Virus record (IMG/VR): IMGVR_UViG_3300049042_000233
Location: 1 to 32,178 of that record
DNA: 32,178 bases
Strand: one strand, 5' to 3'
DNA from: a virus
Taxonomy: Duplodnaviria > Caudoviricetes
In this document: piece after piece, positions 3,838-25,590 of the stretch
Layout: each line of letters begins with the position of its first letter
How positions within the stretch are numbered: position 1 is the stretch's first letter
The notes under the pieces: model-generated
Told to the model about the DNA's origin: nothing
The model's database searches: none
The model's input: the letters and a program-made list of their open reading frames with translations, nothing else
Made by a program: the position numbers and the translations under genes

Positions 3838-4572
3838 TTACAGTTTGGAGATGAGGTCAGCGGTGCGAGTGCGGATGTCCTTTTGGACTTTAGCGTTGAG
3901 GAGCGTGAGCAAGTCCGTTTTGAAAAACGCGAGTGCGGACGTGTAATGCTCCCCGAGCATGTCCCTAAACTCTTGCTCTGGATCTTCAGCCGGTGGCAAC
4001 GCCTCCGGTGTTACGACCTGCGCCTGAGCGGGTTTTTCGACTCGCTCGATGATGCCGAAGTCGCTGACTTCCTCGGGAGTGTAAATCCCGCTCACGACCT
4101 CCGGTGCGAGCAACCGCACTGCCTCTGAGATGAGACGAGCGGTCAGCATTTGGCGAGGGTGCCGCTTGTAGTTCTCTTTCAACTCGCCTCCCTTGCCCAG
4201 GGCGACCCCGTTGGCCACCAGCTCCTGCATCGTGACCTCCATCTCGATGTCGTTCTCTCCGTAGACCCACCGAGCCTTGACTCGCTCGGCAGTCCGAGTG
4301 CCCCAGATCACCTTGCCTCCTGCGGCCTTGTACCGACCGAGCATTGCGTCGGCCTTCATCGACAGCTTGCCGTCGAGGAGATGGTACGTTTGCGTGACCT
4401 CAAATGGGGTCAGGCCCGACGTCAGGCATTGGAGCGCGAGGATGGCTCCCTGCGCGGGTTTGGTGCATCCAAACATCCCTGATGAGGCGAAGGCTTCACC
4501 TAGTTGCATTGCTGCCCCGACGGGGTCCGAGACTCCCGAGAAGAGAGCCAGTGGTTTGTTTTCGTTGTTCAT
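3838..4572 (-). CDS. RecT/Redbeta-like single-strand annealing protein
   Basis: GLTPFE...YHLLDGKLSMKADAM and NYKRHPRQMLTARLISEAVRLLAPEVVSGIYTPEE match the RecT/Bet 'W..P..ML..RA...A.R..FP....G.Y..EE' signature. Confidence 0.8.
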   Translation of the reverse strand: MNNENKPLALFSGVSDPVGAAMQLGEAFASSGMFGCTKPAQGAILALQCLTSGLTPFEVTQTYHLLDGKLSMKADAMLGRYKAAGGKVIWGTRTAERVKARWVYGENDIEMEVTMQELVANGVALGKGGELKENYKRHPRQMLTARLISEAVRLLAPEVVSGIYTPEEVSDFGIIERVEKPAQAQVVTPEALPPAEDPEQEFRDMLGEHYTSALAFFKTDLLTLLNAKVQKDIRTRTADLISKL

Positions 4573-5035: not shown

Positions 5036-5322
5036 TTGCCCCTCCTCTGCCAATAGGCGCGCATGGATTCAACTCGGCTGATTCGCGAGCACGCCGAGCA
5101 ATAGCGCTGGCCACGCTTCGATGGCTTGGCCCCTTTGCACCGACGACACCTCTTACTCGGTGCGAGCATGAGATCCCCGTGGGGCGTCTCGATGCGTTTA
5201 GCGACGAGGAGCCGCTGCGCGATGGACAGAGCGGCGTCCTTGGCCGAGATCAGGTTTGCGTGATCTTCAGGCGAGATGAGGTGCCACTCGCGGCCCTCGT
5301 GCTGGATGGTTTGCAGACTCAT
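5032..5322 (-). CDS. Small basic zinc-finger protein
   Basis: Restarted at ATG 5322 (MSLQTIQ...). CRRC...YCSAC pair and an Arg/Lys-rich C-terminus. Confidence 0.65.
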   Translation of the reverse strand: MSLQTIQHEGREWHLISPEDHANLISAKDAALSIAQRLLVAKRIETPHGDLMLAPSKRCRRCKGAKPSKRGQRYCSACSRISRVESMRAYWQRRGK

Positions 5323-5504
5323 TGCCCCACCTCCTCTCTGGCTGCCTCTAGGACGTATGTGATGCCGATGGCGGCCGACACGAGGCCGAGTACGCCCACT
5401 GCGGCCGTCCATGCGTCCCACTCGAGGGTGCCGAGCAGGGCGAAGTCGATGGTTGATAGAGCGAGGAGTATTTCCCCTTGGATGGTTTTTGCTTTGGTTG
5501 TCAT
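5319..5504 (-). CDS. Small membrane protein (about two hydrophobic segments)
   Basis: 61 aa, ILLALSTIDFALLG and AAVGVLGLVSAAIGITYVL; A/C-rich leader. Confidence 0.65.
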   Translation of the reverse strand: MTTKAKTIQGEILLALSTIDFALLGTLEWDAWTAAVGVLGLVSAAIGITYVLEAAREEVGQ

Positions 5505-5588
5505 GGTGTTGAGTTGGTTATGGGTTGCGTGGGGTTGGGTTAAAAGATTGCTGCAATCACACCGCCATCAAACGGGATAGCAATCGTC

Positions 5589-5620
5589 CTCGCTCTGAGC
5601 CAGGCTCGCTCTGAGCCAGG
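5589..5620. repeat. Perfect 16-bp tandem duplication CTCGCTCTGAGCCAGG x2
   Basis: Copies at 5589-5604 and 5605-5620, read directly. Confidence 0.95.
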
Positions 5621-5675
5621 CGAGAGCGTCGTCCTCGTCTACTCCAAGGTAATCCGTCAAGGCAACCGATCCGGC

Positions 5676-5786
5676 GTGCGTCCAGCTGCCATTTTCCAGC
5701 ATCGCGTCGAGGACGAGTCGTAGGCGGACGAAGCAACCAACACCTTCTCGGTGCGTCCAGCTGCCATTTTCCAGCATCGCGTCGAG
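5676..5786. CRISPR. CRISPR-like minimal unit: repeat (36 bp) - spacer (39 bp) - repeat (36 bp)
   Basis: GTGCGTCCAGCTGCCATTTTCCAGCATCGCGTCGAG is identical at 5676-5711 and 5751-5786. Spacer 5712-5750 matches capsid gene 24899-24937 at 33/39. The repeats are certain; CRISPR function is inferred (no cas genes, only two repeats, weak hairpin). Confidence 0.6.
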
Positions 5787-5996
5787 TGCAGTTTTCCACT
5801 CGAAATAGGCGAGGTCAAAAACCTGCTGCGGAACGTCACCGACGGTCACGTCGTTTCCGTCGTTTGGCGAAAATGATGCTGCCCAGCTTGCCTCGACGTG
5901 GAGGGTTGCTGGTTTGCCTAGGTTTGTTGGTTCAATGCTCATTTTGTTATCTGGTTGGTTGTTTCGTCTTGGGGTCTCCGCCCCTCAACTGCAACC

Positions 5997-6026
5997 ATCA
6001 AACCACAGTTGTTTTTCTCTGTCCAA
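5997..6026 (-). promoter_or_regulatory. Candidate sigma70-type promoter for the early operon
   Basis: Minus strand TTGGAC - 18 nt - TTTGAT, with an A-rich tract upstream, in an AT-rich gap about 55 nt before ATG 5942. Imperfect match to consensus. Confidence 0.35.
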
Positions 6027-6081
6027 CAGTTTTCTCATCTTTTTTTTATGCACTGCAAACTCGTTGAGTTTGAGGTGGTTA

Positions 6082-6113
6082 CCGATGCGGGAGGCCCCAT
6101 CCCCCCGCACCGG
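6082..6113 (-). other. 13-bp GC-rich RNA hairpin without U-tract
   Basis: Minus-strand RNA CCGGUGCGGGGGG-AUGGGG-CCUCCCGCAUCGG. The two non-Watson-Crick pairs are G-U only on the minus strand. Confidence 0.55.
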
Positions 6114-6197
6114 AGCATACCAGACATCCCGGCAAACAACCGGATGAACACGGAAAATCGTCCCACACGAAACTAAGCCCGTCAACGGTGCTCTAAA

Positions 6198-6764
6198 TCA
6201 TTGCTCCTCTAGGCTTTGCGAGAATAGGACAATCTCCGAGAGGGAAGCGATGATGCGTTCCTTTTGGTCTACTGTAAGTTTCTCCACATCAACGCGTTGA
6301 ACCCATCGTCGGAACGATTGCGCCACCCTCTCAACCGTCGGCATCTCCTTGAGGATGGGTTGGTTAGACTGTTTGAAGCGGTACTTCGTTTTGTTCCACT
6401 GAGTTTCTGGAAGTGCCAGCCACGCTTGTATTTCCGTCTGGAGCTTGCTGAGGTTGGCCGACGTCATCCCGAGGTCGGTTGCGGCCTCCGAGAGGTTGTG
6501 CCACCCGATGAGCGGCTGTAGGTCAGCGGCGAAACATAAGGCCACCGCCTTTGCCTTCGCATCTCCGGGACCGAGCATCCACGCTAGGATCCGGTGCAGG
6601 TGCGCGGCCGATGCGGCTGAGGACGTCCTCTCAACATGGTTGGCCAGTTCGGATTGGTGCCAGTCGGCCATCCTCTGCGCGGTTGCAACGGGAATGCCGA
6701 ATCGTTCGGCGAGTTGTTCGGCGGGGGTGTCGAGGTCCTCAGGTGTCCAGTCGGCGGGTTGCAT
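6198..6764 (-). CDS. Putative helix-turn-helix DNA-binding protein
   Basis: Likely ATG at 6764. Two HTH-like segments: AEQLAERFGIPVATAQRM and LSEAATDLGMTSANLSK. Confidence 0.6.
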   Translation of the reverse strand: MQPADWTPEDLDTPAEQLAERFGIPVATAQRMADWHQSELANHVERTSSAASAAHLHRILAWMLGPGDAKAKAVALCFAADLQPLIGWHNLSEAATDLGMTSANLSKLQTEIQAWLALPETQWNKTKYRFKQSNQPILKEMPTVERVAQSFRRWVQRVDVEKLTVDQKERIIASLSEIVLFSQSLEEQ

Positions 6765-24645: not shown

Positions 24646-25590
24646 TTAGGCGATCGTGAGCAACTCCCCAGCGGTCGAATCAACGACCTTTTCGGAGGTG
24701 TGCTGACGGACGCGGACCACACCCGAGCGGCGTGCTTCGTCGCGGTACGTCTCAACGACGAACAGGTCGGAAGCGTCTCCGGTCCATGTCAGCGTGCGGC
24801 CTGCGCCACCTGCTACGAAGTCACCGGATTGGACGTTCCCGATCCATGCGCGGTTCGAGCCCCAGATGAACGAGCCCGAAGCGGACTGTCCTTTTTTCGA
24901 GGAGTCGTACGCGGCCGAAGCGACCAGCACTTTCTCGATGCCGATGTTGGCGGCGATCAGTGCAGCGTCGACGTTGCGGAGGTCTCCGGTTCCGACGGAC
25001 CCGAAGATGTAGCTCTGCACCTTCGCGTTCTTTCTCAGCGCGTTGTAGACGTCGAGGTTGACCACGAGGGTGTTGGCATCCACGCCCTTTTTGCGAAGGC
25101 GGGAGATGGCGTCCTGCAAGTCACTCACGGGGTCTGCTGCGGAGTTGCTCCACACCGTCCCCACGGTCGTGTTGTTGAAGTTGCTCGCGTTGAAGATCGC
25201 GGCGGCCACACGAGTTTCGTGCGCCAGCTTGATGTTGCGGAGCAGCAGCTTTGCAATCGTCGCCTCGGTGTCCAGGAACCTCGAGAGGTCCGCTTGATTG
25301 GAGTCGTCGATCAACTCCTCCAACCCGCGATCCTCGCAGAGGTAGGTGTCGGACGTGAAAGCGCGGGAAATTCGGCTGTAAGAGCCGTCAGCGTTGCGCT
25401 TTGCTGCGTCTGCGTCGACCCGCATCAGGTGGCCCGTTGCGGTGTCGATTTTGAGGTATTGTCCCGCTTTCGTGGCCACCGAGAGAGGTGGCATCACGAG
25501 ACCGCCGATGAGGCCTGAGTCGGCCCCGCCGGATTGAATGACAGCCTGCTGGATGTCACCGCGTAGTACTGCGCCTGTGTTTGCGTACAT
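24646..25590 (-). CDS. Major capsid protein (lambda gpE-like, HK97 fold)
   Basis: 314 aa after scaffold and decoration genes, followed by a strong terminator. Y.CEDRGLEELIDD, E.RVAAAIF, W....ADPV.D, N.LVV...VY.AL..N patterns. Confidence 0.9.
   Translation of the reverse strand: MYANTGAVLRGDIQQAVIQSGGADSGLIGGLVMPPLSVATKAGQYLKIDTATGHLMRVDADAAKRNADGSYSRISRAFTSDTYLCEDRGLEELIDDSNQADLSRFLDTEATIAKLLLRNIKLAHETRVAAAIFNASNFNNTTVGTVWSNSAADPVSDLQDAISRLRKKGVDANTLVVNLDVYNALRKNAKVQSYIFGSVGTGDLRNVDAALIAANIGIEKVLVASAAYDSSKKGQSASGSFIWGSNRAWIGNVQSGDFVAGGAGRTLTWTGDASDLFVVETYRDEARRSGVVRVRQHTSEKVVDSTAGELLTIA

Follow-up and report, generated by a model that had tools for sequence, protein, structure and literature searches.

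A 39-nt capsid-gene insert between two copies of a 36-nt stretch of a small phage gene: a candidate off-target Cas1-Cas2 integration

The small gene and its repeat-insert-repeat unit

The window, meaning the whole stretch of DNA that was analysed, is a 32,178-nt tailed-phage record from freshwater with 59% G+C; its recognisable genes are almost all encoded by the minus strand. An open reading frame (ORF) of 124 amino acids is found at 5568-5942 on the minus strand, as the first ORF behind an A/T-rich intergenic stretch and as part of a variable cassette of small genes. This ORF carries a unit in which, as originally predicted, two identical copies of a 36-nt stretch (5676-5711 and 5751-5786, plus-strand numbering) enclose an insert of 39 nt (5712-5750). 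Each copy corresponds to 12 codons of native small-gene coding DNA and starts with GT on the plus strand. If TTG was the end of the donor, the parse is instead a 40-nt insert with a 35-nt duplication. The ORF reads through both copies and the insert in frame, a point of which the prediction made no use.

The unit was compared in seven of 24 listed sequencing runs (X1-X4, X6, X8 and X10). In X1, a possible source of the record, the insert unitig has a depth of 112.6, the flanks have 111.4 and 98.7 and the repeat unitig has 240. The insert is thus as deep as its flanks and the repeat twice as deep, so the carrier allele is the main form in that population and not a rare chimera. One contig each in X2 and X3 (both from study P2) runs across the whole unit and, compared with the window, 8 letters differ; the insert is free of changes and a single one falls in a repeat copy (at 5685). 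A third carrier allele is represented by a protein, P0006, from an ENA assembly. The evidence consists of contigs and not raw reads, which speaks for an assembly or amplification chimera, but the full depth in X1, the contigs with their own point differences from another study and the third protein allele mean that such an artefact can practically be dismissed. Contigs span both junctions, where the original prediction had asked for reads, and the unit is real.

Four adjacent bases at 5582-5585 differ in X2 and X3 in the same manner as among intact alleles, which suggests that recombination with parent alleles followed the rearrangements. The remaining runs have other gene cassettes at the place of the unit: X4 and X6 are continuous across the region with other letters, and in X8 and X10 only a common piece (5799-5886) is covered, followed by another gene ending.

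The ORF is a rearranged derivative of a phage gene of 155-161 amino acids, and the unit is one of four changes in it. The first 18 codons (5889-5942, minus strand) come from another gene, the 73-amino-acid gene A of relatives, and were fused in frame by a deletion; about 1 nt is common at this fusion junction, and the run contigs have a loose end at 5888. Comparison of the window ORF with P0008 places the junction of an in-frame deletion of 105 nt (35 codons) at 5639-5640 on the minus strand. A contig of parent type, also in X2, is 130 letters long over a section of 41 letters in the window, a difference equal to the 105 nt deleted less 16 nt. These 16 nt are a tandem duplication (5589-5621, no strand assigned; period 16 with 17 matching bases), which causes a frameshift close to the ORF end and is absent from allele P0006. 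Near residue 114, P0006 has Ser where intact alleles have Arg, which could be due to a point change or to the 16-nt duplication having been lost imprecisely.

The fusion deletion, the 105-nt deletion and the unit all keep the frame, which has a chance of about 1 in 27 and suggests that early stops are selected against in a polycistronic operon. The carriers also differ at residues that are conserved in intact alleles (F47L, S86R and K50N), and these substitutions suggest that the protein itself is no longer constrained.

The parent gene is modular, with an N-terminal module of about 70 amino acids that either stands alone or is joined to one of at least three different C-terminal modules (P0002-P0009, P0130-P0155). 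The switch point is a few codons before the duplicated stretch, and most of the N-terminal module is missing from P0004 and P0141. No PHROGs match was obtained for P0003, P0008 or L052, no usable match in the Atlas and none in IMG/VR. A distant member of the family matches phrog_9974 (function unknown), and the scores of the parent gene for the Pfam family VasX_N were all sub-threshold and were taken as noise.

The cassette (5500-5960 in the window; L029-L051 behind the anchor gene) consists of small genes between a conserved gene of 194 amino acids and the resolvase region. Relatives vary in which genes it contains. A repeated A/C-rich motif precedes the starts of successive genes and could be a shuffling point for the cassette. 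The intergenic segment upstream of it (6047-6120) has two adjacent hairpins, for which the Rfam family FinP scored below threshold (E 0.037). Among relatives (L030:5744-5926, L033:7221-7511, L038 and L050) there is an ORF of Gly-Tyr, Gly-Asp and Gly-Ser repeats and a gene of 104 amino acids between the resolvase and RecT genes, both of which are lacking in the window. CheckV gives completeness values of 37-49% for records of 32-38 kb (G000-G039), yet several independent assemblies end near that size, and the estimate may be too low for this phage family.

Origin of the duplicated stretch and of the insert

The original prediction treated the unit as a viral mini-array whose repeat might resemble one in a host array. 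A protein search with the 12-codon stretch found it once in intact relatives of 157-160 amino acids. The intact gene is also found at the DNA level in six metagenome loci, and both window copies align to one and the same place in L052. A duplication with a period of 25 residues is present in only 3 of 49 family proteins, all three with the same insert. Since the stretch is single in intact alleles, the structure is an insertion with a 36-nt target duplication and not a repeat captured from a host. The supposed CRISPR repeat resembles a target-site duplication of the phage's own coding DNA, and that part of the prediction is not supported. These alignments identify the 36-nt stretch as coding DNA native to the phage, and nothing points to a CRISPR origin in a host.

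Database searches agree with this. Exact searches gave no match for the whole repeat in IMG/VR or for 25 nt of it among JGI metagenome contigs, in scans that may omit records very near the window's own. No CRISPR family was among the Rfam matches at E values up to 10, all three of them sub-threshold, and by BLASTN the unit had only short matches (E 0.08-4) to INPHARED phages and PLSDB plasmids. A loose likeness to the repeat of the host is possible. A profile of the capsid protein searched against GTDB gave nothing, one 22% match to a Bacillus phage record was the yield of the host search, the Atlas lists no host for the phage, and no Cas1 was found in the phage record.

The insert is derived from the gene of the major capsid protein (24646-25590, minus strand; 314 amino acids), which was recognised by phrog_1005 (E 7e-40) and by Atlas neighbours that are capsid clusters. 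The predicted ungapped match of the insert to 24899-24937 at 33/39 was reproduced; the runner-up place in the window has 23/39, and 500 shuffled inserts reached at most 27/39. It had also been claimed that the similarity stops at the repeat borders. This is nearly correct, except that three of the four bases following the right border are also those of the capsid gene and that one base at the left border is common with capsid alleles ending in TTG.

Among 24 capsid records (the window and 23 others; a second scan rendered the same 24 contigs), the best match to the insert is 34/39, compared with 33/39 for the phage's own gene. Nine close records have 0-8 mismatches among themselves over the insert site, and 34/39 falls inside this range. 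Four of the six differences between the insert and the phage's own capsid gene, including the Ser/Ala change, are natural bases of sister alleles. The other two (at 5735 and 5740) are found in none of the 24 records and are both synonymous in the capsid frame. The synonymous share of random changes is 26%, so that two synonymous changes have a chance of about 0.07, which makes an unsampled allele likelier than decay in place. The donor is probably an unsampled sister capsid allele, as judged from the distribution of these bases, and the predicted origin of the insert in a capsid allele other than the window's own is supported.

A match of 38-39/39 in the capsid gene of a related phage, which had been named as support, was not found among the 24 records. 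A capsid contig of X2 differs in 5 of 44 letters, and exact searches with a 33-nt part of the insert gave no match in IMG/VR or in GTDB genomes in scans that may omit records near the window's own. When a 241-nt region was compared with 39 whole related virus records, all classed as linear and possibly fragments, five matched and only at the capsid site. Because the exact donor was not found, the true borders and the protospacer-adjacent motif (PAM) are uncertain by one base.

Possible function as a guide

The function originally put forward was that of a working mini-array, processed by host Cas proteins and directed against sister phages, with six mismatches sparing the carrier. The insert is indeed slightly nearer to sister capsids than to the phage's own, and X2 and X3 carry it without change. 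In X2 the carrier allele has the greatest depth of those found (371 compared with 66 and 111), and in X1 it is the only one found, an abundance that is compatible with a benefit but also with hitchhiking. On the other hand, the repeat is phage coding DNA for which no host match was found, the unit is located inside an ORF and not between genes, and no sampled target is nearer than 5 mismatches. The repeat folds no better than shuffled sequences (z -0.95 and -1.23, with no z below -1.3). The operon would transcribe the minus strand, so the RNA would be opposite to a TTN-compatible guide, which needs the plus strand. A scan for promoters and terminators at 5300-6300 on both strands, which is a weak test, gave no sites.

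A comparison of relatives for different or additional spacers at the locus had been proposed. None were found among the few carriers; the same insert occurs in X1, X2 and X3 and in all three carrier proteins. One change in the 111-nt unit compares with 8 letters, or about 5 events, in 346 nt of flanks. The unit thus changes at the rate expected from its flanks, with no sign of extra conservation. Taken together, a working mini-array is improbable. An equally small chance is given to a mini-array at birth, in which host Cas1-Cas2 would have written a spacer of a competing sister phage straight into this phage, part of whose gene thereby became a repeat, and in which the RNA, loaded by a host effector, would help to exclude sisters.

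Two further suggestions were a guide that dampens expression of the phage's own capsid gene and a selected decoy or recombination template. The identity of 85% to the carrier's own capsid gene and the high abundance of the allele speak for such roles. However, the operon shares the minus strand with the capsid gene and its transcript would be sense to the capsid mRNA, so the suggested dampening does not hold if it is to work by RNA pairing. The insert without its TTN flank would be a poor decoy for a TTN-type system, and the two bases that occur in none of the capsid records mean that there is no sign of copying back from a recombination template. Roles of this kind are very improbable.

Writing of the unit and comparison with known systems

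The reading that is somewhat favoured is that the unit was written by off-target integration of host Cas1-Cas2 into phage DNA and is now a neutral scar in a decaying gene. Repeats and spacers of CRISPR arrays have size ranges that include 36 and 39 nt. The site is empty in relatives and native DNA is duplicated, as in neo-CRISPR integration. Compared with the nine close capsid records, the overlap at the junctions is 0 nt to the right and 0-1 nt to the left. At the donor site (24896-24937, plus strand, with the flank at 24896-24898), TT is found at positions -3 and -2 in 24 of 24 records, which are not independent since the Lys codon is invariant. A TTN flank has a chance of about 8% for either orientation and is a possible PAM. 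A TTN PAM goes with types I-B, I-C, I-G and V. The target starts with GT on the same strand as the TTN flank, and the joint chance is about 0.006 by composition, with criteria picked after looking.

Integration of this kind is described in the cited work. With purified Cas1-Cas2 of Pyrococcus furiosus, PMC6698737 describes full-site integration of repeat length in non-CRISPR DNA that was only 43% repeat-like, and off-target sites enriched for G at position 1, T at position 2 and a central A tract. For Streptococcus thermophilus Cas1-Cas2, PMC6895254 describes a preference for G at off-target sites, with the second site measured by a ruler. Off-target integration in vivo in Escherichia coli is attributed to Nivala, Shipman and Church 2018 in 10.1101/148544, PMC7054753 and PMC6698737. 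Before the junctions and flanks were analysed and PMC6895254 and PMC6698737 were weighed, integration by Cas1-Cas2 had been rated somewhat less probable than template switching.

Five inferred steps would lead to the observed duplication of native DNA, the capsid-derived insert, the junctions nearly free of overlap and the real and abundant allele. A host with active CRISPR adaptation (a repeat of about 36 nt, spacers of 35-40 nt and a TTN-type PAM) would have excised a prespacer from a sister phage's capsid gene. Cas1-Cas2 would then have joined both 3' ends of the prespacer to opposite strands of phage DNA, 36 nt apart, and gap filling would have duplicated these 36 nt. The gene would be dispensable and an addition of 75 nt keeps the frame open in a polycistronic operon, which might be why the event was tolerated. 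The lineage would afterwards have diverged and the gene decayed further, with no more spacers added.

The main alternative is a replication template switch or end-joining without Cas, in which case the CRISPR-like sizes are due to chance. During co-infection, a growing strand would jump to the capsid gene of a sister phage, copy 39 nt and return 36 nt upstream. Several features of the locus are in accordance with this and weigh against Cas1-Cas2. Three other rearrangements have occurred in the same gene, and the overlap is about 1 nt in two of these, which shows that a homology-poor process in no need of Cas acts here. Module swaps are frequent in the family, and those of C-terminal modules take place a few codons away from the 36 nt that were duplicated; the gene content of the cassette is variable. 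There is fuzzy homology near both junctions, namely the three of four bases to the right and a 5-nt word out of register to the left. A gene for a RecT-like single-stranded DNA annealing protein (3838-4572, minus strand; phrog_561, E 1e-21, and PF03837 on homologues) is located about 1 kb away and is a possible helper.

Against template switching are the exact junction overlap of only 0-1 nt and the combination of a TTN flank and a GT start in one orientation, which it does not predict. In addition, no other repeat-insert-repeat structure of this kind was seen by eye in 596 kb (55 partly overlapping loci of relatives and the window), where only low-complexity or coding tandem repeats were found besides the unit. 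Template switching or end-joining is possible but is the less probable of the two explanations.

Off-target integration by Cas1-Cas2 has its own weaknesses in that it is a single event and that the unit was flagged for its CRISPR-like sizes, so the agreement in size is partly a result of selection. That the searches found neither a host nor a cas gene also counts against it. The original prediction had a one-off illegitimate insertion as its fallback; the outcome is close to this, but the geometry points to Cas1-Cas2 as the likely writer.

If Cas1-Cas2 wrote the unit, it is natural evidence that the adaptation integrase of a host acts on phage DNA during replication and that the products can spread among wild phages. 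Viruses could then gain repeat-spacer units without capture of a host repeat, which would be a de novo origin of mini-arrays, and the repeat length and PAM of an uncultured host might be readable from phage genomes alone. For surveys of mini-arrays there is also a warning in that a perfect 36/39/36 unit in a phage can arise from the phage's own gene. What seems to be new is that the target is a phage genome, that the donor is likely a sister phage, that a coding gene supplies the repeat and that the unit has spread in natural populations. No report of such an event in a phage genome was found in titles and abstracts of the literature, mostly without subscription papers, which is not proof of absence.

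Minihomology recombination and repair in phage T4 resembles the present case in that dispensable phage genes are rearranged and a phage recombinase is encoded nearby. According to the account in PMC8262927, the T4 process uses about 3-13 identical nt and its products are mainly deletions, whereas a templated insertion with duplication and an overlap of 0-1 nt relative to the nine close records is found here. The T4 type of repair is therefore a poor fit, which weighs against template switching, although fuzzy homology is present and the exact donor was not found.

Virus-borne mini-arrays (SPV1, SPV2, phage mini-arrays and single repeat units) share with the unit one spacer between two repeats in a virus without cas genes, and a spacer that matches a gene of related viruses while the carrier's own copy is mismatched. 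As presented in PMC6858448 and 10.1101/2023.03.03.530964, they have host-like repeats, an intergenic location, leaders (SPV), spacer turnover and near-perfect targets. The present unit differs by a repeat of phage coding DNA, placed in frame in an ORF, by having one spacer only and by a best target of 34/39.

Neo-CRISPR formation by off-target Cas1-Cas2 differs in its setting. The cited work deals with host chromosomes or plasmids and with over-expressed or purified Cas1-Cas2, while the present target lies in a coding gene of a phage genome and a sister phage is the likely donor. The similarities are a foreign insert of spacer size, a duplication of native DNA of repeat length, clean junctions, a G (as GT) at the border and a PAM-like flank at the donor site.
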